Below the pieces are notes generated by a model. It made no database searches, was not told the DNA's origin, and saw nothing but the letters and a program-made list of their open reading frames with translations. A stretch of 62,975 bases of DNA, counting the filler, from Stramenopiles sp. TOSAG23-6 (lineage: Eukaryota), in NCBI GenBank assembly GCA_900128565.1. It is 13 parts of 13 records of this genome, joined end to end, with 100 filler letters (N's around TTAATTAATTAA, not from the genome) between each part and the next. Parts side by side here need not be neighbours in the genome. Positions count along the whole stretch, not along the records: positions 4,874 to 9,644 come from LT637058.1; 12 more parts are not named here. One strand, given 5' to 3'. Shown here in pieces: positions 4,830 to 61,782 of this stretch. Within the stretch, counting starts at the first letter, position 1. Each line of letters begins with the position of its first letter. Both the position numbers and the translations under genes were made by a program.

Positions 4830-4986
4830 NNNNNNNNNNNNNNNNNNNNNNNNNNNNNNNNNNNNNNNNNNNNCAAAATTTCGTATGAAACCAAAAAAAA
4901 AAAATCGATTTTTTGTTAAAAAAAAAATTGTTAGGTACAAAATTTCGTACTAAAAAAAACAAAAATGGTAAAAAAAAAAAATGTAC

Positions 4987-5425
4987 AAGCAAGAATAAGA
5001 GTGTATGCCGTCCGTTCACATAATTTCATGAGCTGCAACAATGAACTCTCATTATCATCGACGTCTACATGACAAATTATAAGTCGATTTTTAAATTTAT
5101 GTGGGGATATTTTTGTGCAACGATCTATAATATATTTGGGATGAAGCATGTGATACTTTAAACTCAAAAATAGTGCACAAACACCATTTCCCAATAGGTA
5201 ATCAGCGTCAATTTTGATATCAGAAAAATGCCATGAAACAACACGAATGTGTTTAAGGATAGGATTTCCGCGCTGCCGAGATGATACTGTGATTGATTTC
5301 CCCGTAGACGTTAATGCTGCAGCATTTCGAGAAGTACGTCTATTATTTGCAGTAGTATACTCTGCCTTTGACCGAGGTTGGATTTGTTTCGATGAACTTT
5401 TAGGGAAATCAACATTGGTTTTCAT
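4987..5425 (-). CDS. ERCC1: DNA excision repair protein ERCC1/Rad10, first exon, partial
   Basis: ITVSSRQRGNPILKHI..ADYLLG..CALFLSLKYHMLHPKYI..TLILA. A family intron starts at 4986 (GTACA). Confidence 0.92.
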
Positions 5426-5799
5426 GATATCACAACTAAAACAATGAAAGAAACAATATACTTTTATACATTATTTCTTTTAAAGAACATAACTTCTTCA
5501 CATGAAACAAAAAAACAAGGAAGTAGTAGTGGCAAAGAAACAAAGTCGAAGTCTTCAGACTCTTCAAATCAAATCAAAACACCAAAATTTTGACCGACAC
5601 GAAATTTTGGAAATTTTGAATTTTTTTTTTTAGAAATGGATTTCCATCTTTACCTTCTTTACCACATTTACTATAAGTGAATAAATACTCCCTATGCTAT
5701 AGATAGATATTGATTTGAACAATTCTTTGAATTCAGAAAAAAAAACATAAAATTTATAATATTATATTTTATTTTATAATCATTGTGAAACGTCAAATA

Positions 5800-8700
5800 T
5801 TACGCTCCAATAGATAATACATCTTGACCAGATCCACGTACAAACACAACTGGAGGCATATCTACTGATAATATTTCAAGCCAACTTGTATATCTTCTAG
5901 TTTCCATTTGAAGATCTGCCAAGGGTAGTTGTACAAATATGATTGCCGATTTGACCGATGCTTCGTATAACAATTCTCTTAAACGCAGTACTACATTGTG
6001 AAAAAATATTTTTCCAAAATGTTTTTTGTTAGGTATGTAATTAGGTACAAAAAAAATACATGAAATGAATATTGAAGACGTACTCCTGCTAGTTTTTGTA
6101 GAAGCGTATTCCCCTCTCGCACTAATGCCTCTCCCAAATAAACCTCCTTTATTTTCACCATCATTCGTTGAGAAACCTGCATGTTTGCAAATGGTTTCAT
6201 ATTGTAATGTTGTTTTTTCACTTGGTCGAGTGGTTAACTCTGCCTCTATGGCCTCTACTTGTGCCGGTATTCGTAATTTTTTTAATAAATGGATCATTCT
6301 ACCAAGTGCTGCACTCAATTTTTCTTTGAAGGTTTTCGACTTGGATGCAANTACAAAAACTCGTATGAAATGATTTTGCCATACACGATGTTTTTGCACT
6401 AGAAAAGCAAGTAAGATTGTAAAACCACCATCATTGGCTAGCCACCAAACATCAATGTATTGTTTATCTTTTTTTGAAGATATGCCCATAATAGAGCTCT
6501 CGGAATACGATTCTGACGACATACGTCGAAGAATCGGCTTAACTATTTGGTTGTTATTGTTTGAGAATGACTTATCNCTTTTAAAATTACCAAATACACC
6601 TGAAGTAGAACTATGGGGATTAGTTTGATCTTCCTTTTGGAAATTGTCGTTCTTTTCTTTTATTAATGGCAGAGGCAATGAAAACCCTGTATCTATATCA
6701 CGAAATATACCATTTGAATCTCGTAATACAATCATTCCATAATTGTGCCAAATAGAATCTTGTATTATNGCTTCATATTCTAAAACTTCAGTTGCTGGTG
6801 CTGTGTCCCAGTCCTTTTTCCATCCTATCAGTACTGTATTTGGTCTAATTCTACCAAGGCCAGTTGTTTGAAGTAAATTACAAAATCCTTCATGTAATGT
6901 TGGTGCACTAATCACTTCGCAGAATGCACCACAATGGCTATGTTTATTTCGCCATACATGAGGGTTATTATATAAAAAATCATGCATTTTAGCCTTGATC
7001 TCTTGAGCATTCAGAAGATCTTCTCTTCTTGAAAGAAATCGATTACCACTTAATTGTTTAGAGTTGCAAACAACATTACCACAACACATTACTCCACCAC
7101 CACTGGAGTTTATTATAATGGCTAATTTCATCATTGCCATTCTTGAATTTGAAATATGATGAGTATTATCATTAAAAGCTTCTAAACAACCTGTAAGTAC
7201 TAAAAGTTCGGGTCTAAATGTTTTAGCATGTGGTGAAATTTCATCAAGTTCTTGAATATGTTTCAAAGTTACTACATATTTTCTGGCCTCCTGTGCAGGA
7301 CCCCAATGAACATCAATGTCAAGAAATCCTACGTATACATATATAAACGCACCTAAAACAAATGATAACAGTGTATACATCCAATTCATAACAAACATAC
7401 ATACCACNCACAGGAGTGCACCAACCAATGCTAACCATTTATTATAGTATTTAAATGTAGGTCTCCAAGACGAATGATTAGCATTTGCTACAGAGAAACA
7501 AGCATAGTTCAATGTCGCATATGCAATCATGAAAAAGTTTGAAATGAGAGGGGCAATATAGTCCAACTCGCCAATCAAACAAAATGCAGTTCCAATCACA
7601 AAAGTGAGGACGTATCCTCTCACAGGTTCATTNCCATGTNTTTNGNAAAATANTTCNAAAAAAAATCTNAAAAATGTGTTAGGTACAAAATTTCGTACGA
7701 AAAAAAAAACAAATTNAAATTTTCAAAAAAATAAAACATACATCACCGCTACCTTTTGAAAAGAAACGTAAACAAGCCCATGGAAATATATTATCTGCTG
7801 CAAGAGATTGAAGAATTCGTGGAGCACCAACAATGGATGCTAATGCTGACGAGAGAGTCGCTGCCCATACACCAACGTATAAAAGTGGAGAAAATACTGA
7901 CACTGTTTCCAGAATCAGTTTATTATATAACAAACCTCCAGTTGGTATTTTTCCAGTAAAATTGTTTGTATATTTTCCAGCTCCATTATCTGGACATATT
8001 TGCATTCCATCTGGATCAGAACACCTNACACANGTTAGACCTACAATCCAAATAAATATTACATATGTTGCAAATGTGAGAGCAATACCACGCGATGTTC
8101 CTTTTGGAATAGCTTCTGAAGGATCGTCCAGGTCACCACTCATATTACAGCCAGCTGTTATNCCTGTGACAGCAGGGAAAAATACACTAAATACACTGAA
8201 AAATGAATACTTGAAACCTGTGGAAGGATCCACCTGAAATGCAGGTAAATACATAGACGTCCAGTTTGTATCAGACACTGATATTTTTGTATTGCCAAAT
8301 GTTGCTTTCAAATCAAATCCCCAGAAACCTAACCCTGCATTAGTTGATCTACTTGGAACACCTGGTAAGAAAATACCTATAAATATACTTACCATTGAAA
8401 CAATTAGAATAAATAATAATATACGCATACTTTTTGCATATAATTTTGCTCCCCCTCCGGCAGACACAGCTAATAATATACTCATAGTACCTACACAATA
8501 NANTCTCATATCCCACGCCCAAGATCCTAATAAAGGTTCAATATCATTTTTTTTTAATATATCGAGAAGAGATTCGACAAAACCTATTGTATACATTGAA
8601 CATGCTACGGCCTGTGCAAAATAAAATAATAAACCAATCACTCCGCCGAATGCAGGACCGAGATTTCTTGAAATCAAAAAATAAGGTCCACCTGTACCGA

Positions 8701-9311
8701 CTTCACCATTTGTACATGTATTTTGGAAAAATATTTCAAAAAAAAAAATTAAAATTTGTTAGGTACAACATTTCGTACGAAAAAAAAATTCGATTTTTTT
8801 GTAAAAAAAAAAAAAACATACATAGAGCAAATATTGAAAGAGCAGTGATACCCGTGACGATATTCGATAATATTACTATTAATGTGCCTAACAAAATACC
8901 TGCCTGACCAGTAACCCAACTAGTACGTAGAAACATAATTACTCCCCATATATTCAATAGAACAGGGACCATGACTCCATCAAACCAGTTCAATTTTGTA
9001 CCAGANTCTTGGGAGACTTGAGCTTTTTTCTTTACATATTTTTTATGAGACATTGCTTTTGAGTTTGGAGCATACACGTCTTTTATATTTTTTAAATCCA
9101 ATGATACATGAGAAGGATCTTTTACTTGTCTAAATTGTAATGTGTTTGGAGGGCTCTCATATGCATCGTCAAACTTTCTTACTTTGTTGAATTTATTCGA
9201 TGCAACAACGACCTTGGCCACTGTTCGCATAGACGGTACTTTTCTTTTACTTTCTATTGCTACTAGCGGAAGCATTGTATCTTTATCATCTTTAATAGCA
9301 TATTCTGACAT
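5800..9311 (-). CDS. SLC12 cation-chloride cotransporter (NKCC/KCC-like); 4 exons
   Basis: Motifs [32 protein letters not shown] and FVRGSG. Removing introns 8716-8821 (GT..AT), 7636-7741 (GT..AT) and 5991-6083 (GT..AG) rebuilds [20 protein letters not shown] and KTSRILRLRELL. Confidence 0.93.
8716..8821 (-). other. Family intron, GT..AT, 106 nt
   Basis: CTA T|GTATG...AAAATACAT|GT ACA AAT GGT. There is no AG between CCTAAC and the conserved TNG motif. Confidence 0.88.
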
Positions 9312-9753
9312 TTTTTTTATTCTAAAGTAGAAACGATATTTATAATGCCATACTTTTTTTCATTCAATGAAAATCTGTCGATCTAGCTAATAGTAGTAAG
9401 TAGCTATTTGTACTCGTAAGTAGTCTAAAATAATAGTGGGAAAAAAACGGACAGTGAGCAGTTGAAAAAATTTACGTTAAAAACCGTATCCTAATTTAAA
9501 TTTCAGATCCAGAATCGTATCTGCTTTGTTTGTTGTTCTGCCGTTGAAATATCTAATATCTAAGTTTTTGACAATAACAAACCTAAAATCGCCATAATGA
9601 AGAAACATGTACTACTTATTCTACTATTATCAACGTGTCTTTCTNNNNNNNNNNNNNNNNNNNNNNNNNNNNNNNNNNNNNNNNNNNNTTAATTAATTAA
9701 NNNNNNNNNNNNNNNNNNNNNNNNNNNNNNNNNNNNNNNNNNNNTTTTTTTAA

Positions 9754-11091: not shown

Positions 11092-13951
11092 ATGCAGTCC
11101 AATGATGGCACCGAATGTCTCACTGTTGGAGCCGAAGCGTTTCGATTAATCGATAACCTGTCATTTCCGTGTATAATTAAAGATGTCAAAGTGGATACTT
11201 TCTCCGTACAATATACTGATGACGGTTTCATCGAAGACAGTGTCCCTCAAAGTGAGCTTACATCTCGTAGTGGTGTTATTGATTTAGTTAATTGTCAGCA
11301 GGATGTTGAAATAATTCGTCCGTTTAATGCACATAGAAAAGCAGATTTAGTTGTAGAAAAGACACCCGTATCTTTTGTTGATCAGAAAAGTGACTCAGTT
11401 GTAAAAGAAAAGTGTCAACTGGACAAATATATAGTTCACAAATGTAATACAATAGACAATAAGCCTGTATCAAACAAAGAACTATTAAAAACGGAAACAA
11501 AGAAGGAAACAACAACAATAAAAACGGACACAAACAATGTTTCAATTATAAAAAACTCCATCCACCCTAAATCTAATGTCTCCGACTCTGAAGCATCTTT
11601 AATTTTGAAAGCAGCTGGTGAGTCAAGAACTTGGAGCCAACTCAATGTCTTTGAGAAATGGGAAGCTATGAAAAAAGGGTTTAATCGTATTCTTGAAAAA
11701 CATGTACATTTTCATCATTTATTTCACCCTACCCTGATATATTGTGGAGTATAGAACGTTTTTTTTTTTTCACTTTTTTTTCGTAGGTAATTTTGTACCT
11801 AACAATTTTTTTTTGTTTTTGAAATATTTTTTTTTTTTTTTTTTGTAGATTCTTCAATTTTCTCCATATTTGTTCTTCAAATGTATTTTCTAGAATTCTA
11901 CTGAAATTATTGTACCTAAAGAAATATAAATCTAAGAACTCACATATTTTCACTAACCCTAACCCTAACCCTAATTTTCACAACACATGTTGAACAAATT
12001 TCCATCGCACTTCAACAGGACAATTCTCTGTTTAATGACAAATTCCAAAACACATTTGATACCATTGATGAGTTTGATGATGTATGTTTTATATTTTTTT
12101 TTTTACCGAAAAAAAAAAATCGATTTTTTTTTTTGGTTTTTCGTACGAAATTTTGTACCTAATAAAACATTTTTTTTTTTTTTGAAATATTTTTCAAGAA
12201 TAAATTTTGTCATTGATGAACCAGAAGAACTGAATTTAAAAATAAGACAATTATCAAGAATGTTGAAACAATCAAAGAATACTATTATTTTTACAGGTGC
12301 TGGCTTGAGCACATCCTCAGGAATTCCGGCATATCGAGGGAAAAATAGTATCAAAAATATAGAAAAAAGAAAAAAAACATCTTTGTTGACTAAACATCCT
12401 AACCCTAACCCTAACCCTACTACACTTTCCACATCAAAAAAATCAAAAAAATCAAAAAAATCAAAAACATCAAAAACATCAAAAACATCAAAAACATCAA
12501 AAACATCAAAAACATCAAAAAACGCTGAATCAGAAGAAAAGCATACGACACACTTGCCTTCTACATCTGATATGATTTCAATTGTGCCAAGCAAAGCACA
12601 CGAAATCATCACAAAACTTGTTGACTCAAAACAGTATGTTTTCATACTTTTAAACCCTAACCCTAGTAACCCTACCCTAAAAAAAAAAGAAAATTTTAAA
12701 TCTTCATTCAAAACCAAACATATTTTTTTTTTTTTTTTAATTTTTTTTACAATATTGTGTTCATTGCCATCATTTCACAAAATATTGATGCATTTCTTTC
12801 TTATCATTATATGAATTACATGGTATTTTTTTTTTTAATACGAAATGTTGTACCTAACAATTTTTTTTAGATTTTTTTTGAAATATTTTTTTACAATATT
12901 TTGTTCATTGCGTCATTTCACAAAATATTGATGGATTACACCTTAAAAGTGGTTTATCTAAAGAATCATTATATGAATTACATGGTAATATTTTTATGGA
13001 AGTGTGTAATTCTGTAGATGGTTGTACGTTTTCATAATTGAATTTCAAATTTATTTTTTTTTCGTACGAAATTTCGTACCTAACAAATTTTACAAAAAAA
13101 AAATATTTTTTTTCACATTGTATGTGGCATAGAGACAATTCAAGAAAATCCAATGACGTCATTTATTGAATTACAGGAAAGATTCAAACAAAAGAAAAAT
13201 GATACCATTGATGTTCATGTATGTTTTATTTTTTTTTATTGGGAATTTTGTACCTAAAATATTTTGGAATTTTTTTTGAAATATTTTTCCAAAATATTTT
13301 TTTTTTCATACGAAATTTTGTACCTAACAAATTTTAAAAAAAATTTCGAAATATTTTTCCAAAATACATTTAACAGGACGAAAATGTCAATATTGTAATG
13401 CCCCTACTCGAGATAATATTATCGGTTATGGTGAACCACTTAATGTACATTTTCATTTGAATTACATATATATATATATGTAGATATTTTTCTACCAAAA
13501 TTTGTACTTTAAAAAAAAATATTTTTTTTTCTACCAAAATTTGTACTTACAAAAAAAATATTTTCTTTACAAAAACGTTTCACGATATAGGCAGATGTCA
13601 TTAGTAAAGCTTCAAAAATCGCAAAGAATGCAGATTTGATCATTGCAGTAGGATCTAGTCTTGGAGTTATTCCAGCAGCGACTCTTTGTATGTTTGTCTT
13701 ATCCTAATCCTTCAATGATACAATTATTTCTATTTCATAAAAAAAAATTTTTTTTTGTTTTTCATAGTAAATTTTGTACCTAAAAAAAAAAAAAAAAAAA
13801 AAATATATTTTGTTATACTACATGTACAATGGGAAAATCATTAGTAATTATTAATATAGGTAAAACATCGCTAGATACTACGGCGCAACTTTTGATTAAA
13901 GGAAATATTAATGATGTTTTTGAACAACTATCAACTAGAATGTATATATAA
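11092..13951 (+). CDS. SIRT6/7-like sirtuin with an N-terminal Tudor-like domain; 8 exons
   Basis: Motifs [47 protein letters not shown] and LVIINIGKT. Introns at 11704-11988, 12082-12205, 12634-12901, 13024-13123, 13219-13369, 13445-13590 and 13688-13823. The join to ORF 11092 is less certain than the sirtuin core. Confidence 0.85.
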
Positions 13952-15981: not shown

Positions 15982-16916
15982 ATGAACGGCGACTTAAAAG
16001 TACAACATTGTAAAGGTCCTCGGCGTCGAACCAGCACAATGGTCGTTGCTGAAGGTGGTGAGGTTAAAAAGAGTCAAAAAGAGTCAACGAAAGAATCTAC
16101 CTTCTGGTCTCAAATCACGGCACGAAAAAGTTTGGAAGTTATACTTACTGAGGAAAGTGAAGCAGATTTAGATCGATCTCTAACCCTTACTGATTTACTA
16201 GCTATTGGTATTGGTGGTACAGTAGGTTCTGGAATTTTTGTAACGACAGGCTTGATTGCGCATGCTTATGCCGGGCCTGGCGTTGTTTTGAGTTGGTTAA
16301 TCGGTGGTGTCTGTTGTTGTATCAGTGGTTTATCGTATGCAGAAATGAGTTCTCGTCTGCCTAGTGCGGGTTCGGCATATGCATATACTTACTATACTAT
16401 GGGTGAACTTCCGGCATTTATTGTTGGTGGACTATTGTATGTTTTCGTTATTAATTTCCAACTTATTTTTTTACAAAGAAAATTTTGTACCTAACGAATT
16501 TTTTTTAACTTGACATATTTTTTTACATTACTTGACGTTAGAATACGGAGTAAGTGCAGCAGCTGTTGCTCGAAGTTGGGGTGATAAAGTTGTATTTGTT
16601 ATTGAGGAACAGTTTAAGCTAAATGGGGTTGGTTTCCTAAATTATGAATATGGAGCTTTCATGGCAGGTTTAATTCAGTTTTTATCTGTTTTACTTCTTC
16701 TTCTTGGATTTTCTATAAGTACACGAGTGATAAAGGTGGCAACAGTGTTTAAAGTAATACTTGTAATTTTTATCATGATTGTTGGGTTTATTCATTTTGA
16801 TATTTCAAATGTAAGTCCAATTGTACCAAAGTCACATCAGTTCATACCCAGTACTAAAGATAAAGAAAATGGTTTACATTCCTTCCCATCATTTGGTTTC
16901 ACTGGTATAATGTAGG

Positions 16917-24963: not shown

Positions 24964-25219
24964 TCTAATGCTACTTTGAATTCTGAGAGTCTGAAACGTT
25001 TTTGTAACCCTAACCCTAATTACAACTTTTCTTAATCTAATTCTACTTTGAATTCTGAGAGTCTGAAACGTTTTTGTAAATGTGTGGCATAGCTTTTATT
25101 ATCCACTCAACAATATAGTTTGTATTAGGGTTAGGATGTTGTATGAGATTTGTATTAGGCGTATACTATTGATTGATACGAAAACACCAAACAAATATCA
25201 TATACAACAATTATACTGT

Positions 25220-29086: not shown

Positions 29087-29300
29087 ANNNNNNNNNNNNN
29101 NNNNNNNNNNNNNNNNNNNNNNNNNNNNNNNTTAATTAATTAANNNNNNNNNNNNNNNNNNNNNNNNNNNNNNNNNNNNNNNNNNNNCAAAATTTCGTAT
29201 GAAACCAAAAAAAAAAAATCGATTTTTTGTTAAAAAAAAAATTGTTAGGTACAAAATTTCGTACTAAAAAAAACAAAAATGGTAAAAAAAAAAAATGTAC

Positions 29301-29739
29301 AAGCAAGAATAAGAGTGTATGCCGTCCGTTCACATAATTTCATGAGCTGCAACAATGAACTCTCATTATCATCGACGTCTACATGACAAATTATAAGTCG
29401 ATTTTTAAATTTATGTGGGGATATTTTTGTGCAACGATCTATAATATATTTGGGATGAAGCATGTGATACTTTAAACTCAAAAATAGTGCACAAACACCA
29501 TTTCCCAATAGGTAATCAGCGTCAATTTTGATATCAGAAAAATGCCATGAAACAACACGAATGTGTTTAAGGATAGGATTTCCGCGCTGCCGAGATGATA
29601 CTGTGATTGATTTCCCCGTAGACGTTAATGCTGCAGCATTTCGAGAAGTACGTCTATTATTTGCAGTAGTATACTCTGCCTTTGACCGAGGTTGGATTTG
29701 TTTCGATGAACTTTTAGGGAAATCAACATTGGTTTTCAT
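29301..29739 (-). CDS. ERCC1: ERCC1 first exon (duplicate copy)
   Basis: Translation identical to 4987-5425. Confidence 0.9.
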
Positions 29740-30094
29740 GATATCACAACTAAAACAATGAAAGAAACAATATACTTTTATACATTATTTCTTTTAAAGA
29801 ACATAACTTCTTCACATGAAACAAAAAAACAGGAAGTAGTAGTGGCAAAGAAACAAAGTCGAAGTCTTCAAATCAAATCAAAACACCAAAATTTTAATTT
29901 TGCCAAAATTTTGACCGACACGAATTTTTTTTTTTAGAAATGGATTTCCATATTTACCTTCTTTACTACTAAGTGAATAAATACTCCCTAAGTTGAAGTA
30001 GATATTGATTTGAACAATTCTCTGAATTCAGAAAAAAAAAACATAAAATTTATAATATTATATTTTATTTTTAATCATTGTGAAACGTCAAGCA

Positions 30095-33000
30095 TTACGC
30101 TCCAATAGATAATACATCTTGACCAGATCCACGTACAAACACTACTGGAGGCATATCTACTGATAATATTTCAAGCCAACTTGTATATCTTCTAGTTTCC
30201 ATTTGAAGATCTGCCAAGGGTAGTTGTACAAATATGATTGCCGATTTGACCGATGCTTCGTATAACAATTCTCTTAAACGCAGTACTACATTGTGAAAAA
30301 ATATTTTTCCAAAATGTTTTTTGTTAGGTATGTAATTAGGTACAAAAAAAATACATGAAATGAATATTGAAGACGTACTCCTGCTAGTTTTTGTAGAAGC
30401 GTATTCCCCTCTCGCACTAATGCCTCTCCCAAATAAACCTCCTTTATTTTCACCATCATTCGTTGAGAAACCTGCATGTTTGCAAATGGTTTCATATTGT
30501 AATGTTGTTTTTTCACTTGGTCGAGTGGTTAACTCTGCCTCTATGGCCTCTACTTGTGCCGGTATTCGTAATTTTTTTAATAAATGGATCATTCTACCAA
30601 GTGCTGCACTCAATTTTTCTTTGAAGGTTTTCGACTTGGATGCAANTACAAAAACTCGTATGAAATGATTTTGCCATACACGATGTTTTTGCACTAGAAA
30701 AGCAAGTAAGATTGTAAAACCACCATCATTGGCTAGCCACCAAACATCAATGTATTGTTTATCTTTTTTTGAAGATATGCCCATAATAGAGCTCTCGGAA
30801 TACGATTCTGACGACATACGTCGAAGAATCGGCTTAACTATTTGGTTGTTATTGTTTGAGAATGACTTATCNCTTTTAAAATTACCAAATACACCTGAAG
30901 TAGAACTATGGGGATTAGTTTGATCTTCCTTTTGGAAATTGTCGTTCTTTTCTTTTATTAATGGCAGAGGCAATGAAAACCCTGTATCTATATCACGAAA
31001 TATACCATTTGAATCTCGTAATACAATCATTCCATAATTGTGCCAAATAGAATCTTGTATTATNGCTTCATATTCTAAAACTTCAGTTGCTGGTGCTGTG
31101 TCCCAGTCCTTTTTCCATCCTATCAGTACTGTATTTGGTCTAATTCTACCAAGGCCAGTTGTTTGAAGTAAATTACAAAATCCTTCATGTAATGTTGGTG
31201 CACTAATCACTTCGCAGAATGCACCACAATGGCTATGTTTATTTCGCCATACATGAGGGTTATTATATAAAAAATCATGCATTTTAGCCTTGATCTCTTG
31301 AGCATTCAGAAGATCTTCTCTTCTTGAAAGAAATCGATTACCACTTAATTGTTTAGAGTTGCAAACAACATTACCACAACACATTACTCCACCACCACTG
31401 GAGTTTATTATAATGGCTAATTTCATCATTGCCATTCTTGAATTTGAAATATGATGAGTATTATCATTAAAAGCTTCTAAACAACCTGTAAGTACTAAAA
31501 GTTCGGGTCTAAATGTTTTAGCATGTGGTGAAATTTCATCAAGTTCTTGAATATGTTTCAAAGTTACTACATATTTTCTGGCCTCCTGTGCAGGACCCCA
31601 ATGAACATCAATGTCAAGAAATCCTACGTATACATATATAAACGCACCTAAAACAAATGATAACAGTGTATACATCCAATTCATAACAAACATACATACC
31701 ACNCACAGGAGTGCACCAACCAATGCTAACCATTTATTATAGTATTTAAATGTAGGTCTCCAAGACGAATGATTAGCATTTGCTACAGAGAAACAAGCAT
31801 AGTTCAATGTCGCATATGCAATCATGAAAAAGTTTGAAATGAGAGGGGCAATATAGTCCAACTCGCCAATCAAACAAAATGCAGTTCCAATCACAAAAGT
31901 GAGGACGTATCCTCTCACAGGTTCATTNCCATGTNTTTNGNAAAATANTTCNAAAAAAAATCTNAAAAATGTGTTAGGTACAAAATTTCGTACGAAAAAA
32001 AAAACAAATTNAAATTTTCAAAAAAATAAAACATACATCACCGCTACCTTTTGAAAAGAAACGTAAACAAGCCCATGGAAATATATTATCTGCTGCAAGA
32101 GATTGAAGAATTCGTGGAGCACCAACAATGGATGCTAATGCTGANGAGAGAGTCGCTGCCCATACACCAACGTATAAAAGTGGAGAAAATACTGACACTG
32201 TTTCCAGAATCAGTTTATTATATAACAAACCTCCAGTTGGTATTTTTCCAGTAAAATTGTTTGTATATTTTCCAGCTCCATTATCTGGACATATTTGCAT
32301 TCCATCTGGATCAGAACACCTNACACANGTTAGACCTACAATCCAAATAAATATTACATATGTTGCAAATGTGAGAGCAATACCACGCGATGTTCCTTTT
32401 GGAATAGCTTCTGAAGGATCGTCCAGGTCACCACTCATATTACAGCCAGCTGTTATNCCTGTGACAGCAGGGAAAAATACACTAAATACACTGAAAAATG
32501 AATACTTGAAACCTGTGGAAGGATCCACCTGAAATGCAGGTAAATACATAGACGTCCAGTTTGTATCAGACACTGATATTTTTGTATTGCCAAATGTTGC
32601 TTTCAAATCAAATCCCCAGAAACCTAACCCTGCATTAGTTGATCTACTTGGAACACCNGGTAAGAAAATACCTATAAATATACTTACCATTGAAACAATT
32701 AGAATAAATAATAATATACGCATACTTTTTGCATATAATTTTGCTCCCCCTCCGGCAGACACAGCTAATAATATACTCATAGTACCTACACAATANANTC
32801 TCATATCCCACGCCCAAGATCCTAATAAAGGTTCAATATCATTTTTTTTTAATATATCGAGAAGAGATTCGACAAAACCTATTGTATACATTGAACATGC
32901 TACGGCCTGTGCAAAATAAAATAATAAACCAATCACTCCGCCGAATGCAGGACCGAGATTTCTTGAAATCAAAAAATAAGGTCCACCTGTACCGACTTCA

Positions 33001-33606
33001 CCATTTGTACATGTATTTTGGAAAAATATTTCAAAAAAAAAAATTAAAATTTGTTAGGTACAACATTTCGTACGAAAAAAAAATTCGATTTTTTTGTAAA
33101 AAAAAAAAAAACATACATAGAGCAAATATTGAAAGAGCAGTGATACCCGTGACGATATTCGATAATATTACTATTAATGTGCCTAACAAAATACCTGCCT
33201 GACCAGTAACCCAACTAGTACGTAGAAACATAATTACTCCCCATATATTCAATAGAACAGGGACCATGACTCCATCAAACCAGTTCAATTTTGTACCAGA
33301 NTCTTGGGAGACTTGAGCTTTTTTCTTTACATATTTTTTATGAGACATTGCTTTTGAGTTTGGAGCATACACGTCTTTTATATTTTTTAAATCCAATGAT
33401 ACATGAGAAGGATCTTTTACTTGTCTAAATTGTAATGTGTTTGGAGGGCTCTCATATGCATCGTCAAACTTTCTTACTTTGTTGAATTTATTCGATGCAA
33501 CAACGACCTTGGCCACTGTTCGCATAGACGGTACTTTTCTTTTACTTTCTATTGCTACTAGCGGAAGCATTGTATCTTTATCATCTTTAATAGCATATTC
33601 TGACAT
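30095..33606 (-). CDS. SLC12 cation-chloride cotransporter (duplicate copy)
   Basis: Same as 5800-9311; introns at 33011-33116, 31931-32036 and 30286-30378. Confidence 0.92.
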
Positions 33607-34094
33607 TTTTTTTATTCTAAAGTAGAAACGATATTTATAATGCCATACTTTTTTTCATTCAATGAAAATCTGTCGATCTAGCTAATAGTAGTAAGTAGCT
33701 ATTTGTACTCGTAAGTAGTCTAAAATAATAGTGGGAAAAAAACGGACAGTGAGCAGTTGAAAAAATTTACGTTAAAAACCGTATCCTAATTTAAATTTCA
33801 GATCCAGAATCGTATCTGCTTTGTTTGTTGTTCTGCCGTTGAAATATCTAATATCTAAGTTTTTGACAATAACAAACCTAAAATCGCCATAATGAAGAAA
33901 CATGTACTACTTATTCTACTATTATCAACGTGTCTTTCTNNNNNNNNNNNNNNNNNNNNNNNNNNNNNNNNNNNNNNNNNNNNTTAATTAATTAANNNNN
34001 NNNNNNNNNNNNNNNNNNNNNNNNNNNNNNNNNNNNNNNGTACAAAATTTTTTGAAAAAAATAAATTCAAAATTGAAAAAAAAATAAAACATAC

Positions 34095-35150
34095 TTCAAT
34101 GTTGGAGCAGCGTTTTTGCATATAATTGAACCTGTCTCTCGACTTCCAGTAAATGAAACTTTAGCAATATTTGGATGTTGAGATAAATGCTGACAAATAT
34201 TGTGAAAAATATTCTTTGAATTTTTTTTTTCTTACTTTGTTAGCTATGAAATCTTGTACGAAAAAACAATTGTGATGATGATGATACACGTACCCACACT
34301 GCCGTCTCCTAAGACCACATTTAAAACTCCATCGGGTGAATATTGAAAACGTAATTACAAAAAAAAAATCTTAGGTACAACATTTCGTATGAAAAAAAAA
34401 ACTGATACATTCGAAATTGAAATGAATGTTGAAAACGTATAATCCAGCCTCAGTGAACACTTCTGCAAGAGCAAGAGCAGTGAGAGGAGTTAATTCGGAT
34501 GGCTTAAATACAATAGAATTACCACATGCCAATGCAGGGGCAACTTTCCACGACATTCCTTGAATTGGATAATTCCAAGCACCAATACCAGCAGTGACTC
34601 CAAGAGGCTCCCGTCTAGTATATGCAAAAGAACCACCAGGCTGACCACCACCAATAGGAACATGAGTGCCTAAAGTAGCAAAGTTGCTACATAAACCTCC
34701 CATGTACTCAATACAGTCTCTTGCACTAATAACATCAACATATGGAGTCTCGGAAATAGGACGACCTGTGTCGATAGCTTCCAGCTCAGACAAAGCATCA
34801 TTTCGTTCAGTGAGTATATTGGCTGCACGGTGCATAATTCGACCTCTTTCGGCTCCAGACATGGCAGCCCATCTCCGCTGACCTTCGCATGCACTAGATA
34901 TTGCATAATCAACATCTTGCGAACACGCTACCTCGATTTCTGTAAGTATATCACCAGTATTTGGATTCGGAACAGGTATCGTCTCATTAGCCGATGACGC
35001 ATCGTGGAACTGACCATTGATCCAACTCTTCACACGTGGAGGAACACCCGAAATGCCATCGCCTTTATTGTAAGAGGCAAGACTTGTCACTGTCCTCCAA
35101 TGTGATATCCTCGGGTGTATAAGCCTACACCGGGTTAAATTCATCATCAT
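34095..35150 (-). CDS. Aldehyde dehydrogenase, ALDH9/betaine-aldehyde dehydrogenase-like; 3' partial
   Basis: Motifs REPLGVTAGIGAWNYP, KPSELTP, EAGLPDGVLNVV and KVSFTGS. Introns at 34338-34440 and 34195-34293, and one starting at 34094. Confidence 0.93.
34195..34293 (-). other. Family intron, GT..TT, 99 nt
   Basis: GTG G|GTACG...CACAATATTT|GT CAG CAT rebuilds VGQHLSQHP. Confidence 0.8.
34338..34440 (-). other. Family intron, AT..TC, 103 nt
   Basis: GGA TT|ATACG...CAATATTC|A CCC GAT rebuilds EAGLPDG. Confidence 0.8.
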
Positions 35151-38913: not shown

Positions 38914-41365
38914 ATACAGAACTCAATGGAACTTGTCATTGTGAAGCACCAGCAATACCTGACCCTATCACCGGGAATTGCGAGTGTATGAATGGTTCAA
39001 AAGCATCTGCAGAACATGGAAAAGGATGTGAGTGTATGTATGTTTTATTTTTTTTAATTGTTTAGCTAAATATTTTTTCATAGGAAATTTTGTACCTAAC
39101 AATTTTTTTTTTTTTTTTGGTAAAAAAATTTTGAAATATTTTTCCAAAATACAGATGTCGCGTTTTAATTGCGTCATTGGGTACTATGTACGGAAGACGC
39201 CTTTGTTCTGCAACTTCTTTGTCTTTCAGACACACACAACTGAGTTCGTCCTCAGGAAGAATCATGTATGTTTTTTTTTTTTTTTTTGTATGAATTTTTT
39301 TTCGTACGTAATTTTGTACCTAACAAATTTTCAAAAATTTTTTTCAAATATTTTTACAAAACACATTGGTGGTTTTTTAGCATGCAATCCTCCTCTTGTT
39401 CATCTGGATCTCTCGAATAATCGTATTGAATTTGGTGTCAAAGATATTATAACAGGTTTGAAGAACAACACACGACTCTTGGAACTAATGCTGAACAACA
39501 ATGGAGTCCGGGATAAAGATGCATTACATTTTATACCAGCACTTCATGTCAATAAAACACTACAAAACTTGGACTTGTTATCTAATCCAATTGATGAACA
39601 GACATATAAAACAATATCGTCTATGCTACAAAAACAACAAAACCAAAAGACGACTGACGTCTCAGCGACAATAATTAAAACTGACGCAACAGTCAAAATA
39701 GATCCGAAAGAGACAAAACAAGAAGAGAATAATGATAAAAATATGTCACGGCCAATTCAAAACAATGTTGAGCCAAATCTAAAAGAAGAAAGTCAAATAG
39801 AAATTATAGATATTCAGAAAAAAAATAAACATACGAAAAACAAAATTCAATCGAAAGTTATTACAAAAATAATACCTTCAAAAGTGCAGGTAGAACAATC
39901 TAGCAGAAGAAAGAAACTCATGTACGTTTTCATTATGAATTTCAATTTTTTTTTTTTTTTGGTTTTTTATAAAAATTTTGTACCTAACAAATTTTGAATT
40001 TAATTTTTTTTACAATACATGAAAAAAGCTAGAGCCTGGATGAAATTCCAGCAAGAAAGGCGCGAGATTTTAGCAAAAGAAAGAGTTGCCCTTGCAAATT
40101 CTCTTGCTTTAAGGGAATCTAAAGATACGGCAAACATGACTGAAAAGTTAGAAAATAGAAAAAATGTTACAAAAGTACAAAAAGTACAAAAATCGAAAAC
40201 TCTCAAAGCAACAGGGAAAACAGCAACAATAGCAAAGACAAAAACAGCAAAGACAAAAACAATATCAAAAGTGACCAAGGTAATAGAAAAAATAAGTGCA
40301 AAACCAATAAAACCAATGAAACTTATAAAACCAATAAAACCAAAAAAAACAAAAAAAGTGATACCAAAAACAAAAAAAGTAATACCAAAAGCAGAAAAAG
40401 TGACACTAAAAGCAGAAAAAGTGATACTAAAAGCAAATATTCCCGAAGAACCAAAGCTATTGTCACAGGACACACTTGATAGTCTCATATCTCCAATGTC
40501 GCATAATTTTCATCGTAAGAAAACTAATCCTAGAGAAGCACAAAATGTCAGAATACGTGAATATCTAAAAAATAGTGGTGCTCAAAAGTTCACTACTACT
40601 GCTGATTCAGAATCGATTAGGGTTAGGGTTACTACTGATTCAGAATTGGCCAAAGGGAATCCAGTAGTTGGTTCACCAATACGGATTCGTAATGCAAATG
40701 TTATGCCAAAATCAACAGGAAAATTTAGAGAAAAATTCAAACAGAAGTTCAAGCAAAATCAAACTAAACTACAAAATACATCAAATGAAAAACTTTTAAA
40801 TTCATCGCCAATTATCTGTAAAACATCAAAGTCAACGCCAAAAATAAAACCAACTACAATTGTTCCAAAATCAATTTGGACTTCATCTTTAGTTCCGGAA
40901 AGAACAGCCCCAATATCAAGTAATGCTACATCAAAAAATATCGCTGCTAACAAATCTCCTCGGAAATCACAAATATCAAAAACACCGACTGCAAAAACTG
41001 TAAAAACTGTACTTGAGCCTCGGTTCCGACCACACACATCTCATGAACACAAAGATATGAAAAAATATAGACCAGCAACATCAAAGGGAGGAACTAAACA
41101 AAATACTTTTACATATGCTGCTGAAATTGGTAAAGTGTTTGGTTGGGCAGAGAGAGCCAGTCGGAGAGACGAAAAGCAGCAAAAAAGAGCTGAAATTTAT
41201 GCTCTCAATGTTATTATGAGGGAATGGAGAGATCGCGAAATGGAGCAGTGGGCTGCAATGAAGGGTGAGGTATGGAATGTTGATTGGACTTGTCGTTTTT
41301 GTTGGAGTGGTAATGAATACTATGAAAAACGTTGTAATTTGTGTCAAAGCAAGAAACCAAATTAA
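38914..41365 (+). CDS. RNI-like LRR protein with a Lys-rich region and a C-terminal RanBP2-type zinc finger; 5' partial
   Basis: LVHLDLSNNRI, LQNLDLLSNPI and WTCRFC..N....RCNLC. Introns 39038-39154 (GT..AG), 39266-39366 and 39922-40020 (both GT..AT). Confidence 0.8.
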
Positions 41366-43838: not shown

Positions 43839-46800
43839 AAACTCCAAGTTTTTGTACATCTTCTCGACATTTACCAAATAAATCACGACATTGACCACTT
43901 TTGCATTGTTGACCATTTCCACATTCTTCATTATTTGAATGACATGGAGAGCCATGAGGAATCGTACTGCATAACTTATCACGACAGGTTTGTCCTAGAC
44001 CACATGTTGTTTCTTTATTCATTGGACATTTTGATAATGTATCTGGAATAGCAACGCAATCACCACTTAAAATATCACATTTTTGTTCAGCGTCACAGTC
44101 CATATTTGACGTGCATTTACTTCGTTTTGTTATTAGTTTTATTTCTTCAAAATGACAAAGACGTAAACATCTTTTCTTTATACAAACGATTCCATGTATT
44201 TTGGAAAAATATTTCAAAAAAAAATTATGAAAAATTTGTTAGGTACAAAATTTCGTATGAAAAAAATTTGAAAAAAAAATTGAAAAAAAAAAATTGAAAA
44301 AAAAAAAAGACATACATTCCCTACACAGGATTTTTCATTCGTTGCACAACTTGCAGGTTTTTGACCAAATACTCCAAAGACAATCATACATTTTCCTTTT
44401 GTAGTACAATATTGACCAATTCCACAATCTTGATCACTAAAACATTTGGAACCTTGTGACATAAATATACATTTTGTATCAAAACATTTATGTTGATATG
44501 GACAGTCAAAAGAATGACTACATCTTATTTTGTTTTTTGTTCTTAATTTCATATTTCTTACATGTTCAATAGTTTCAGTCATTGCAGCATTACAATAAAA
44601 TCTCCGACACTTTCCAGCGAGACATGTTTGTCCTTCTCCACAGGAGTTAAATTGTCCATCTAAACCACAATAACTCAAAACTGGTCTATATTCACATATT
44701 CCAGTATCACTTTGTTTTGAAGCAACACATCGTTGACCATTTCCACAACCACTCAATTCTTCAGACCCACTCTTATTACTTAAACAAACTGAACCTTCCA
44801 AAATGTTTAAACATCTCCCAGCAGCACATCGTTGATTGGCTGTACAACCTAAATTATCAAAACATAATTTGCCTGAGGCTGGATAGAGAAAACCTTTAAT
44901 GAGTGGTTTTGTTTTTCCATAAATTGAAATACAATAATTATTTTGACATCTTTGTGAATATCCACAATCCTCTTCAATATTACATGGAGTGGAACTAAAT
45001 ACAAACATGCAGATGCCTAAAACACATCGGAATCCATTGCCACACTCATTCGAAGTATTACCATCTGTAGTCGTACATTTTTTATTCATAATATTTTTTG
45101 TATTTTTTGTATTTTCTTCAGTATTTTTTGTAGTATTTTTACTATTTTTAGTCGTATATACATCAATTGTTGAATAGAGATCCATACATTTACCTCTGTC
45201 ATGAATACCAATTGAATCTTCCACATACAATTTATTTTTTATTCTTGATACTAATGAAACTTCTACTTGATTTTTTGAATGTACTTTAGCTTTTGAATGT
45301 TCTAAACTTTGAAATCTATATGTATTTTGATCATCATTATTTTCCATGTCACAGACCTGTCCACTACCACAATCTTCATCATGAACACATGGAGCCCCTT
45401 CTGGAATACTTGGCATATGTGAGAATATTGTAGATAAACTAAGAGCAATTTCTCTTTCTACTACATTTCTTCTTTGAATTTTTATTGTAAAGAAATATTT
45501 TTTTTAATTTTTTAATTTTTTTTGGTTAGGTACAAAATTTCGTACGAAAACTAAAAAAAAAAATTAAAAAAAATTAAATTTTCAAAAAAAAAAAAAAACA
45601 TACTGAATCATCAAGTTCTTTTCCTTTCCCTGTTAGCAAAAGAATCATTCTTAACTCTTTATTAATTTTTATTAGCGACGTTTGTAAAATATTTAATTTT
45701 ACTTCATTTGCTTTGATTTCTGCAGTATTTGTACTACACTTTTTCAAATCTAATTCAGCTTGATGTATTTTGGAAAAATATTTCAAAAAAAATTCTAAAA
45801 AATTTGTTAGGAAAAAAAATTTTAATTTAAATTTTGAAATTTAAAAAAAAACATACATATCTTTGTTGTAATTGTGATAATAAAGCTGACACTTCTTCTA
45901 GACCATCATGAATGATTTTATCCTGCATTGGACCAATAATTTTTTCCATAAATTCATTTCGTTTGTTTGTGTTGACTTTTTGTTGTATTTCTAATACTCT
46001 GACTTTTTTATACTTTTTCAGTTTATTCAACCAAAATATTTCTGTTTTCACGGACAAATCATACGAATGTTCAGTCTTTTTCAATTGTTCTTGTAATTGT
46101 TGTTTTAAATTATTCATGAGACGATTAAAATTTGACTGATTTTGAGTATTTTTTAGAGTATTTTTTAGAGTATTTTTTTGAGTATTTTGTGGAAAACCAA
46201 TAGCTGAAAGACCAGCTTGAGTCATCATTACATTGGTTAAATTTTTGATTTTTTCTTTCAAATTATTGATTTCTTTTACAACATCTCTCGACGCAATTTT
46301 TGCTTTTTTATATTCACAATCTCCGATACAGATGTCATATTTTTGACGTTCTAATATAGAGCATGTATTGTGAAAAAATATTTTTTTTTTAAACTTTTTT
46401 TGTTAGGTACAAAATTTACTATGAAAAAAAAAATTACTTTTTTAAAAATTTTTTTTTTTTGAAAAAAATAATATATACATGTGGCTTCACAGGATCCCGG
46501 TACCACACGACGACCACCATGCCCGGTGGTGAATAATGCATGATTTTGGCTAGTACCATCAGGATTTTTTGTTGGGTTTGTTGGAATACGAAGGGAGCTA
46601 CCTAAAGCAATTGGAATTTTTTTTTTCATTGTTTCATTTTTTTTATTTTCTTCGTTTTTTTTCATTGTTTCGTTTTTTTTATTTTCAGTATTTTTTTTAT
46701 TTTTAGTATTTTTAGTATCAGAATTGACAGTTTTATCATGATTACCTTTATTATATTTCATATTATTTGTATTTTTTTTCATACCAAATTCTGTACCTAA

Positions 46801-47604
46801 CAAAGATTCATCTGTTTTTGATTGAACCATTCCAAATATTAATTTTTGAACATGTCTTGAATGATCAATACTCATAATATTTATGTTTTTGTCATGTATT
46901 TTTTCTTCACGGTTTTTAATTTTTTCATAATTAGTGGCAAAATACGGAGGACAGACACAATGGACGTCTTTATCACCTAATAGACATACACAAGTTGTAT
47001 TTTTATGTAATTTTAGGAAAATATTTGAAAAAAAAAATCAAATTTTTTGTTAGGTACAAAATTCACTACGAAAAGTTTTTTTGAAATATACAAAATTGAA
47101 ATATCAAAAACGTACATAGGATTGTACCATTTGGACGACTCTTTTCGTTACTGTGTGTAATCGTTCCCCCACTAGAGGATAACATGATTGATTCCTACTT
47201 TGAATGAAACAATCAAGCCCTTCAAAAAGAAGCGCTTCGACTCCACAAGAACGTAAAACAATTCTAGCAGAGAGTCTATCAAAGTATTCGTGTTTCACTG
47301 AGCCAGTGTTTTGTGTATGGGCTCTATCGGCTCTATGTTGTTCATCATTTGGATCTACATCTATTATTTGATGTCTCTCTTCTTCTTGAGCGTTTTGAGT
47401 TTCTTCCTGTATATACACGTCAACGTCTGATTCTAGATTGAATGGTTCTGATTGATCCACTGCCGATAGAGTTTGCGTGTTAGACGTCCTTTCTATTTTC
47501 CCCGCCAAACTGAAAGTACCGAAATTAGAGACACAGTCGCTCTGGAAAATGGCAACGTAAAACAGAACTGTATAGATAGACATGCGACGTGATTGACGTA
47601 TCAT
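43839..47604 (-). CDS. Secreted protein with a coiled coil and many short Cys-rich repeats; at least 6 exons, 3' partial
   Basis: Signal peptide and repeated C..D.DCG.GQ.C units. Removing introns 47005-47115, 46363-46478, 45763-45856, 45480-45603 and 44194-44315 links six ORF segments in frame. Confidence 0.75.
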
Positions 47605-52346: not shown

Positions 52347-53211
52347 TTACTTAACACCAGGTTTTGTATTTGGTCGATTTTGATTGATGAGATTTTCAAG
52401 ATCGTCCACGGTAGAAATGCCATGAGCAGACTTTGCAATTTTACGTGATGCTTCAAAAGCATTTGACACCCGAGTTTTATCGGCTTCTAGCTCAGTCATA
52501 TGAGATTCGAGTCTCTCACTGATGTCATCAATGAGTTTCGCACAAGCAGTTGCACCTGTATGATGAAAAAATATTTCAAAAAAAAAATAAAAATTTGTTA
52601 GGTACAAAATTTCCTATGAAAAAAAAATTCGATTTTTTTGTAAAAAAAAAAATAAAACACACCTGTACCCCCGAGGGAATTATAGCTCATCATTACTGAA
52701 TATGGATCAAGAACTTTTTTCACCTTTTCTTCATCAGCATCAATACCTTCGTTTTTCAAATGTTCCATAACAGCGTTTATGTCAGTTAAATTTCTTCCCG
52801 ATCGAGTTAATTTTCCAACAAGGGAACCAACAATGTATTCTGGAAAAATATTTCAAAAAAAAAAAAAAATCGTTAGGTACAAAATTTCGTACGAAAAAAA
52901 AAATCAAAATTAAAAAAAATAAAACATACACGTTGTACCTCGAGATATTATCATTGCACCACCATTATTTGGCATTTCTAGACAAGTTGGTCTATCATCA
53001 CCAACACCTCCACCATTTGGTAATGGAGAACTACACAAAATATTATTGTCAGAATCTTTAGGGTTAGGGTTACTGTCTGAATCTTTAGGGTTAACGTTAA
53101 CGTGTACTGCATTATGACTAGACTTGGGATTGCGCAATAAACTTTTATCTATTGCCATTAATTCAACTGAATTTCCCGCAGTTACAGCAAACGTACCATC
53201 TGAAGACATAC
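52347..53211 (-). CDS. Hypothetical protein, last three exons
   Basis: Open exons separated by family introns ~52833-52931 (5' boundary ambiguous by 2 nt) and 52556-52662 (GT..AG). Confidence 0.55.
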
Positions 53212-55113: not shown

Positions 55114-57461
55114 ATGGATGAAGATACCAAATTGGATGACATTGCTAAATCAGGAGCGGTTCAAATTATTTCCATTGACATAGAAAATGAAACTGTGGAA
55201 CTTCACGAGGAAGCTCTCAAAACTATTTTGGGCAGAATTCCGGAAGAAACACCAGTTTCAGTTATCAGCGTCGTAGGTGCGTTTCGTATGGGTAAATCGT
55301 TCATGCTTGATTTAATGTTACGTTACTTGAAGAATACTTCGATCCTTGCCGATAATGGTAGTTTTGAACTACGTCAAACAGAAACTGCTAATGAAACGAA
55401 CCTCAGTGACGATGAAGGTTGGATCAGTTTAGACACACCACTAGAAGGGAACGAAAGACAGGGTCAAGGACACACTGGTTTTTCCTGGCGTTCTGGTAAA
55501 GATCGTATGACTACAGGAATATGGATGTGGCCACAGCATTTTATTCGTACATTGTCCTCTGGGAAAGAAGTAGCCGTTTTATTAATGGATACACAAGGTA
55601 TGTTTGATGGTCGTACTTCCCAAATGTTAACAGCGGCAATATTTGGAATTAGTACTTTGCTATCTTCTTATCAAATCTATAATGTCAGTCGTCAAATACA
55701 AGAAGATAACTTACAACATCTCGCTTTATTTGCCGAGTATGGACGGCTCGCGTTAGTCGGGGAGCAAAAAGCTCATGAGGAAATTCTCAAAAGACCTGCA
55801 AAAAAAAGCATGTATGTTGTCATCATGAATTTCGAATTTATTTTATTTTTTCAAAACAATTTCATACCTAACAATGTTAAGTTTTGAAAACACACATTTA
55901 CACAATACATGTCCAGTGGAGGAACTGATACTTCTAGCTCTACATCATCTAATAATGATGATAAGAAAAAATCTGCACAGGAAAATAGAAAAGAAAAACA
56001 AAAAGAACAAAAAGAACAAAATGAACAAAATGAACAAAATGAATCGGCACCTTTTCAACGATTGGATTTTGTAGTTCGCGATTGGCAAAATTTTGAGGAT
56101 GAAGATGAAACCGATGAAATGCTGCAATCAATGCCGGGTTATCTAACTCAAATGGTATCGGCACATCACAATGAAAAAGCTTTGAGTGATCTAAATGATA
56201 CTAGAACCCAAATTTATGCATGCTTCAAAAATGTGGGTTGTTTTTTACTCCCTCATCCTGGTTTTGCCGTAACTCGTAAAGATTATGCGGGGAATATGGC
56301 AGATATTAGAGAACCTTTCTTACGAATGTACGTTGTCATTCTCTTAATGTCTTACTGTTAACGTAAAAAATGTAGTTATTTTTTTTTTGGTAGAACATTT
56401 TTTTTTGAAATAATTTTTTTTTTGAATATTTTTTCACAAAACATGGTGGATATATATTTAAAACGTATTTTTAAAGAACATTTAGAGCCAAAAATTATTA
56501 ATAATCTTGCATTAAATGGTTCACGTATGTTTATATGAATTTCTAATTTAATATTTTTTTCATACGAAATTTTGTACCTTGTTTAGATATGCTAAAGGCT
56601 ATGTTTCACTATTTCGCGAAGCAAAAATTTTTCCAGAAGCAAAAACACTTCTTGCAGCGACAGCTTGTACGTTTTCAATCATTCATTTCAAATTTATTTT
56701 TTTTCATATGAAATTTCATACCTAAAATATTTTTTTTTTTTAGTTTTTATCATGCACGTTTATTTATTCAATTTAAAAAAAAAAATAATACCTATTTCTC
56801 TGCTTTCGAATGGTTTCAATGACTATTATTTCATGTTTTCATGTGTAATGACACACCTAACAAAAAAAATCAAATGTTTGAAATATTTTTTTACTATATA
56901 TATGCTGCAAACTTAAATGCAAAAGAAGCAGGATTTAAACGGTATAGAATGACAATGAATACTCGTTGCTCAGCTTCTATGGAATATGTAGGACCTGCAG
57001 ATTTAGAGCAACTTCATAAAAAGTCAACACAATTAGCTCTTGACAGCTTCAACGAAATCGCAACTGTTGGCAATGCACTTGAAATTGATAAATTCAGAAC
57101 GTCATTGATGGATGAAATATTGAAACAATTTCAGGAATATCAACAACAAAATTCCAACAAAGATCCCTTCAAAAATGTGGAATACTTTATTATTCCTCTA
57201 TTCATTGCCTTTGTAGCATATTTTGGACGTATTTTTAGTGATTTGACTTGTTATGAAGCAGAAACCAAATCATTTGACTTTGAATATGCAGATGTTTGCA
57301 ATCGAGCTTCAATATACTTTGGATATGTTCAATGGGCAATTATTTTTTTTGTTCTTGCTGGATTTCTCTCATCATCTGCCGTTGCTCTTTCACAACTTAA
57401 AATGATTTTTAACATGTTGAGTGGTGCATCCGTCCTTGCAGCCAATGCGAATTCGAAATAA
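55114..57461 (+). CDS. ATL: Atlastin-like GTPase; 5 exons
   Basis: GAFRMGKSF, TTGIWMW, LMDTQG, VRDW, LPHPG and a C-terminal TM pair. Introns at 55812-55910, 56328-56444, 56525-~56579 (truncated) and 56667-56901. Confidence 0.9.

Positions 57462-61778: not shown

Positions 61779-61782
<4 letters not shown>

Follow-up and report, generated by a model that had tools for sequence, protein, structure and literature searches.

A recurrent 25-nt core in an intron family of Stramenopiles sp. TOSAG23-6 and its probable part in splicing

The window analysed here, the whole stretch of 62,975 nucleotides (filler included) from Stramenopiles sp. TOSAG23-6, carries on its minus strand at 8758-8782 a 25-nt sequence that departs from a repeated core, TTTCGTACGAAATTTTGTACCTAAC, at one position only, a G at core position 14. 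One half of the core is palindromic and the other ends in a branch-point-like motif, and the question raised by the locus is whether such a motif is read as a whole when the intron around it is removed, or only in part, or not at all. A sequence-only reading of this DNA had proposed either an extended branch site, recognized by a modified snRNA or protein that makes up for a missing 3' AG, or the binding site of a mobilising enzyme. Here, we argue that the core is probably the central block of an intron family of the introner type, which is young and present in many copies, that only CTAAC within TACCTAAC is read in splicing, as a U2-type branch site, and that the palindrome is not needed for it.

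The repeated core and its intron family

The window consists of 13 contigs of about 4.74-4.77 kb each, with N44-TTAATTAATTAA-N44 as joiners, a GC content of about 25-38% and long open reading frames that avoid all three stop codons. Contigs 4874-9644 and 29188-33939 are near-duplicates whose N positions coincide and whose offset shifts by 19 nt, and represent either alleles or redundant assembly; since the second nearly repeats the first, features present in both were counted once. For an atlastin-like gene, one database protein, P0122, agrees letter for letter with the window wherever the two align and has a source label beginning with GSMAST32, which we take to denote a heterotrophic marine stramenopile. 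Brown algae, a diatom and Ochromonas, all of them stramenopiles, are the next named relatives, with identities of about 45-55%. Five seawater metatranscriptome runs contain 8-16% of the sampled words from 48563-58138 and were the sole runs with parts of this region.

A search of the window with Rfam at gathering scores gave zero matches, and no snRNA gene. When relaxed to E <= 0.5 the sole match in the window was mir-297-like, at 50 bits against a gathering score of 90, and this match is accounted for by a (TATG)n microsatellite of 21.8 copies at 61782-61868. Telomere-like (CCCTAA)2-3 runs occur 10 times in the window at <=1 mismatch, against 0.03 expected (Table 1). Certain of these runs lie inside open reading frames, where they are translated as NPNP, and an inverted pair is formed by two of them that point towards each other, one near 62607 and one at about 62680-62700.

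The core had been reported to recur dozens of times, and the counts agree: there are 40 matches at <=3 mismatches in the window, 11 of them exact, with 0 expected and none found in 100 dinucleotide-preserving shuffles. Three of the 40 fall in the near-duplicate contig 29188-33939, which leaves about 37 independent loci, and a profile built from 12 full-length copies gave 57 matches in the window at E <= 0.01. The motif is indeed present at 8759-8786, where it had been placed, with its true span and strand as given above. Metagenome scans with a 20-mer of the core, and with the core plus the 3' block, gave 0 matches, and a scan with a 17-mer gave 6 single matches in viral contigs, which we take as chance. 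A full-text literature search on TACCTAAC returned primers and similar sequences only.

The copies belong to a family of AT-rich introns of about 87-124 nt with three conserved blocks, namely a 5' block GTATGTTTTATTTTTTTT, the core and a 3' block GAAATATTTTTCCAAAATACAT; a linker of variable sequence lies on either side of the core, and the tail between the core and the 3' end is rich in T. In an alignment of 23 full-length copies the first two intron positions, G1 and T2, are invariant (23/23), and the linkers differ chiefly by the length of T/A runs; they define sub-families, each of which has the whole core. Family copies occupy unrelated genes, among them those for SLC12, aldehyde dehydrogenase, argininosuccinate lyase, an atlastin-like GTPase and others. 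That the motif is intronic, as had been claimed, and also strand-specific is borne out by its orientation relative to the flanking open reading frame, which is sense in 35 of 48 copies, opposite in 6 and undecidable in 7.

Mean identity to the consensus in 29 introns is 0.94 for the 5' block, 0.94 for the core and 0.875 for the 3' block, figures that are rough since the gapped alignment over-fits diverged copies. The three blocks are about equally conserved, and the core is therefore not uniquely conserved but one block of a recently copied element. The earlier statement that the flanks vary freely holds for both linkers beside the core, in which homopolymer length is the main variable, and fails for the 5' and 3' terminal blocks, which are about as conserved as the core. 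Slower divergence of the core than of the remaining intron is seen relative to the linkers and is lacking relative to the 5' block, in a comparison that is biased by the detection of the majority of copies via the core itself.

Some copies are found in more complex arrangements. The introns at 13219-13369 (+) and 4875-4992 (-) are composites with two tandem cores, that is, nested or tandemly duplicated elements, and Tandem Repeats Finder reported a 70-nt unit, 2.0 copies, at 13229-13366. At 12760-12930 (+) a family element has a repeat of about 28 nt on each side (TTCATTGC.TCATTTCACAAAATATTGATG), and it appears that the element-containing segment was duplicated.

Splice borders and 3' ends

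Table 1. Coordinates in the window of the introns, intron parts and telomere-like runs discussed in the text. A slash marks a cut.
Feature	Position	Strand	Remarks
Intron around the core at 8758-8782, 106 nt, GTATGT...ATACAT	8716..8821	-	SLC12-type cation-chloride cotransporter gene; frames consistent
5' block GTATGTTTTTTTTTTTTT, including the 5' splice site GTATGT	8804..8821	-	
Palindromic half of the core, TTTCGTACGAAA	8771..8782	-	two CpGs
Putative branch site TACCTAAC	8758..8765	-	predicted branch adenosine 8759, 43 nt from the 3' end
3' block GAAATATTTTTCCAAAATACAT	8716..8737	-	intron end AT, not AG
Second family intron, 106 nt, GT-AT	7636..7741	-	same SLC12-type gene; exact core 7678-7702
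Natural deletion variant, 94 nt, GT-AT	45763..45856	-	5' and 3' blocks intact; CCTAAC the only remnant of the core
AG-ending family member, GTGTGT...ATACAG	52556..52662	-	argininosuccinate lyase gene
Family intron with exact core	52837..52929	-	same lyase gene; ends in AT (...CCAGAAT/ACATTG)
Family-related intron without GT or AG, TACG...TTCA or, shifted by one base, ATAC...ATTC	34337..34439	-	betaine-aldehyde-dehydrogenase-like gene
Shortened member, 52 nt, 3' end within the core (..TTTTGTA/CCTTG..)	56525..56576	+	exact cut inferred from frame only
Telomere-like runs	11951-11975, 12397-12415, 25008-25020, 40616-40628, 53057-53069, 58508-58520, 62607-62619		

That the 3' AG is missing, as the sequence-only reading had it, stands for most of the family on the evidence of homologue junctions and reading frames. 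Among 29 curated introns, for some of which the borders were set by analogy and frame only, the termini were GT-AT in 22, GT-AG in 4, GT-GT in 2 and GT-AA in 1. Homologues align without gaps over five junctions, which indicates exact excision. The longest flanking frames agree in 19 of the 29; for the majority of the remaining 10, shorter open frames form a consistent pair, and the borders of intron 16437-16528 are ambiguous. Non-AG introns with a branch-like motif number 25, and in 11 of them an internal AG is skipped, at least 10 nt past the branch A in 10 of the 11. A cut at the next exonic AG would put 15 of the 25 out of frame. Among the 29 introns, 17 follow an exon that ends in AT and 18 precede one that begins with G. 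No near-identical transcript-derived protein was found in the protein searches. On sequence evidence the elements are introns that would be cut out exactly, and mostly without a 3' AG.

In the SLC12-type gene, the homologues P0001 and P0002 cross both family introns with no residue lost or gained. At 8716..8821, P0001 is contiguous across the gap by tblastn at residues 133-135 (..FAIC/TNGEV..), and the equivalent cuts lie within a direct repeat, ATGTA, where none yields GT-AG. At 7636..7741, P0002 is contiguous at residues 314/315 (..KGSGD/GNEPLRGY..), the direct repeat at the borders is ATG, again with no equivalent cut that gives GT-AG, and an internal AG 12 nt past the branch A is skipped.

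The argininosuccinate lyase gene combines two kinds of 3' end. Homologues P0244 and P0245 are colinear across its AG-ending member (..SLGGTG/A..). At 52837..52929, homology puts the 3' cut 4 nt before the usual ACAT; a cut at ACAT is inconsistent with the frame, and the conserved HH-IVG motif of the homologues needs ATT GTT GGT as exon. A long low-complexity stretch (..NPKDSDSNPNPKDSDNN..) at 52930-53230 (-) stands directly upstream of ..R.THHIVG.. in this gene and was not found in the aligned parts of the homologues.

In the family-related intron 34337..34439 the core is degenerate, with CCTAAG as its final letters, and a 17-nt direct repeat, TACGTTTTCAAYATTCA, is found at both ends; the junction ..TEAGL/PDGVLNVVLGDG.. 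aligns gap-free with a solved (PDB) structure, ..TEAGV PAGVFNVVQGDG.. (= ..TEAGVPAGVFNVVQGDG..). This intron looks like a fusion in which the 5' block of a second element was joined onto the 3' end of a first. In the shortened member 56525..56576, CTAAC is absent and a CTAAT is present upstream, with homologues aligning from 56579 (LFRYAKGY..), and the motif is thus not absolutely required at that spot.

The public gene model behind P0122, at locus 55054-57461 (+), drops two in-frame pieces of exon 1 that are present in homologues, leaves out coding sequence on the flanks of the real first intron along with that intron, and translates part of intron 56328-56444 (..RMYVVILLMSY..). These errors seem to stem from a gene predictor bound to GT-AG, so that proteome predictions which apply this rule to such genomes are likely to contain errors at many loci.

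Excision at the DNA level, of the ciliate type, was considered as another way of removing the elements and was set aside in view of the canonical 5' splice site and branch motif, the strand bias, and the avoidance of all three stop codons in the long open reading frames. The 3' cut would usually be made after AT, with AG, GT and AA also used at the same place, and the last dinucleotide consequently seems to be loosely read. A more far-reaching version, which we hold only tentatively and would not expect to prevail, is that the spliceosome of this lineage no longer needs a 3' AG and cuts about 43 nt past the branch block, where almost any last base would do (T far more often than G, then A), that this relaxed rule made it possible for a single element to supply most of the introns of the genome, and that the core anchors the choice of the 3' site in addition to branching.

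Putative branch site and palindromic half

The 3' end of the core had been called branch-like in form and position, and it is so in both respects. CTAAC fits yUnAy, it is followed by a T-rich tail, and the second A of TAAC is located at a median of 43 nt (range 34-55) from the inferred 3' end in those 22 copies whose 3' block can be recognised, in keeping with the distance of about 30-50 nt given previously. The general consensus of U2-type branch sites is yUnAy, and a distance of 34-55 nt is within the U2-type range. TACCTAAC corresponds to the yeast UACUAAC with one C added, and could pair with a standard U2 over its full length only with a bulge; as CTAAC already fits yUnAy, neither a modified snRNA nor a special reader is required.

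The motif had also been described as intermediate between U2 and U12 branch sites, and the U12 side of this description could not be upheld. U12-type introns have the 5' site RTATCCTT and a branch site about 10-20 nt from the 3' end. A U12-type intron was rejected for the family, as its 5' site, GTATGTTTT beginning with GTATGT, has GT and not CC at +5/+6, and its branch motif TACCTAAC stands at 34-55 nt and not, as TCCTTAAC does, at about 10-20 nt.

Conservation of individual positions was assessed in 48 unique copies with <=5 mismatches. TACCTAA, core positions 18-24, is conserved at 94-100%, with positions 21-24 at 98-100%, and position 25, the final C, at 79%. The palindrome TTTCGTACGAAA is perfect over 12 nt in the consensus, as claimed, but intact in only 16 of the 48 copies, and its CpG positions are the weak ones: C4 is conserved at 85%, G5 at 52% (G to A in 22/48), C8 at 73% (C to G in 12/48) and G9 at 77%. 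By a rough alignment, the palindrome matches TACCTAAC in conservation once its CpGs are set aside (0.978 vs 0.970). The copies are too similar to one another, so that selection on TACCTAAC is statistically inseparable from recency. Diverged members retain CTAAC, CTAAT or TTAAC, and the palindrome is unrecognisable in them. Sub-families with different linkers all keep an intact core, an observation that would also suit a function of the palindromic half.

The natural deletion variant 45763..45856, the single case that lacks the palindrome, joins phase-0 open frames of 182 and 62 codons and has its branch A at 44 nt from the 3' end.

A structured RNA hairpin was tested as a role for the palindrome and rejected. 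In the 23 aligned introns its central G:C pair is kept in 10, and 79.0% of cells pair compared with 76.8% in shuffled alignments, a value reached by 56 of 500 shuffles; for the second hairpin, GTACGA/TTGTAC, the figures are 76.1% and 73.9%, reached by 42 of 500. RNAalifold predicted 0 pairs on these introns, and fold z-scores of single copies ranged from -2.5 to +0.6. Covariation was thus not convincing for either hairpin, and the palindrome showed no compensatory change.

These observations bear directly on the proposal that the whole 25 nt is a single extended recognition element, for which a modified snRNA or dedicated protein would anchor the 3' cut and offset the missing AG. The non-AG 3' ends that it was meant to explain are real, the spacing from the core to the 3' end is narrow while the 5' part is more variable, the entire core is kept in all sub-families, and a co-evolved snRNA has a precedent in the U1 of Entamoeba, in the part of that work considered here (10.1101/2022.06.08.495308). 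Yet the CpGs of the palindrome vary uncompensated and no consensus structure is formed, the member reduced to CCTAAC is consistent in frame, and a truncated or degenerate core does not keep members from interrupting genes at borders supported by homology; CTAAC, moreover, needs no special reader. We regard one extended branch site of 25 nt as quite improbable.

At the opposite extreme, the core could be functionless, its conservation due to recent copying beside homopolymer flanks that are more mutable, with the real branch site elsewhere. In conservation the core does not exceed the 5' block, linker differences are mainly in the length of T/A runs, and at least one member (56525-56576) does without CTAAC, all of which would be expected. 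Such an account has difficulty with the survival of CTAAC-like motifs in the deletion variant and in those members that have diverged furthest, with the scarcity of alternatives, as most copies show by eye no other good yUnAy between core and 3' end, and with the strong 5' site and strand bias, which indicate that the elements are read as introns. It has very little probability in our judgement.

The reading of the core as the middle block of an introner-type family, with CTAAC as the only part of the core that is read in splicing, accommodates these findings in the following way. Each copy would come equipped with a 5' splice site (GTATGT), with a branch site and with a T-rich tail that ends in ...ATACAT. 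Of the core, only the final 5-8 nt (CTAAC within TACCTAAC) would be read in splicing, as a U2-type branch site of the ordinary kind at about 43 nt from the 3' cut. TTTCGTACGAAA, the palindromic half, would not be needed for splicing and would be present by descent from recent masters that bore it, and it may serve in mobilisation. We infer CTAAC as the branch, the spliceosome as the cutter and likewise the mode of 3' site choice.

The second proposal of the sequence-only reading, a binding site for a mobilising enzyme, is narrowed here to the palindromic half as a candidate site for such an enzyme (for example a transposase or nuclease dimer), which would be needed in the masters only and free to decay once inserted, with CTAAC reserved for splicing; so narrowed, it overlaps with the reading preferred here. 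The perfect 12-nt palindrome is present in the consensus of every sub-family and decays, mainly at its CpGs, after insertion, and being thus ancestral to all sub-families it could belong to the mobilising machinery. A variant without it has been found only once (45763-45856). Core fragments in both orientations are seen in the probably non-coding 62350-62975, and an antisense core at 46777-46801 (+) lies inside the open reading frame 46351-47037 (-), a frame of 228 codons (..LGTEFGMK..), and may be an exonised antisense fragment or an indication that the frame is spurious. Both kinds of fragment fit, and hint at, insertion at the DNA level.

Other observations speak against such a site. Known DNA transposons have their binding sites in terminal or subterminal and not in central position, and no transposase was found by eye among the long open reading frames of the window. 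The terminal inverted repeat, ATGTAT...ATACAT, is just 6 nt long, 2 of which are exon bases. A locus-specific target-site duplication is not evident: across the 29 introns, the exon-end and intron-end dinucleotides rarely match where either of them differs from AT, and of about 13 introns that follow an exon with another final dinucleotide than AT, only 2 repeat that dinucleotide at the intron end (hand count). For the AT shared by exon end and intron end, a 2-bp duplication and a site preference are both conceivable. By a rough estimate, finally, one 12-nt palindrome in an AT-rich element of about 100 nt has a chance of a few per cent. A mobility site in the palindromic half is on balance unlikely.

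Relation to known introns

In its signals the family comes close to the yeast arrangement GTATGT...TACTAAC...YAG, having the same 5' site, a branch motif with one inserted C and a similar distance from branch to 3' end; it differs in that the last base is mostly T and not G, in its high intron density, and in being made of copies of one element. U12-type introns resemble it in a branch motif ending in ..CCT(T)AAC and in their tolerance of non-AG 3' ends such as GT-AT, but combine RTATCCTT with a spacing of about 10-20 nt where the family has GTATGT and 34-55 nt.

Bursts of intron gain are at present best explained by introners, and nearly all introner families that we know to have been described obey GY...AG. 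A survey reports introners in 5% of genomes, mostly of aquatic organisms, with borders GY...AG, as stated in the parts of it drawn on here (PMC9860276). As in Micromonas, Aureococcus and many other aquatic protists covered by these parts, the family here consists of near-identical short introns in unrelated genes of an aquatic protist host, which are richer in AT than the exons, carry at least part of their own splice signals and leave the frame intact after excision (PMC9860276). The families of the survey have GY...AG with rare GC or GA 5' sites, whereas the family here mostly ends in AT (PMC9860276); it also shows no clear target-site duplication and an inverted terminal repeat of only 6 nt. 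No mention of marine stramenopile (MAST) lineages was found in the main text of the survey (PMC9860276), and a term search of literature including the genome papers on uncultured marine stramenopiles PMC5778133 and PMC8163842, as far as their searched text extends, found no account of such introns.

Element-derived introns with non-canonical borders are described, in the sections considered, from Fritillaria borealis (AG-AC/AG-AT), Amoebophrya, euglenids and Physarum (U12-type) (PMC11282704, PMC13326754, PMC7789003). The introners of Amoebophrya resemble the present family in being repeated non-canonical introns of a marine protist, with short direct repeats spanning the borders and complementary intron ends; they have, according to the same sections, no preferred terminal dinucleotides and a U1 that was not found, whereas here GT is invariant (23/23) and AT dominates at the 3' end (PMC7789003). 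The complementary ends measure only 4-6 nt here, unlike those of Amoebophrya.

Fritillaria borealis, in the passages of the two papers used here, shares a burst of element-derived introns with non-AG 3' ends (AC/AT there) that are precisely removed, and an exon sequence before the intron that resembles the intron 3' end (PMC11282704, PMC13326754). Its introns mostly start with AG, in contrast to the strong canonical GTATGT and canonical-looking branch site found here, and the host is a tunicate and not a protist. Divergent U2AF paralogues have been implicated in Fritillaria in those passages (PMC11282704, PMC13326754).

The present family differs from these systems in that a strong canonical 5' site and a branch motif are retained and only the 3' dinucleotide is relaxed. 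If confirmed, it would add a third or fourth independent lineage, beside Fritillaria, Amoebophrya and the euglenids, in which element-derived introns are paired with relaxed splice rules, and, should RNA data bear it out, it would offer a natural system in which the choice of the 3' site is separated from the other splicing signals.
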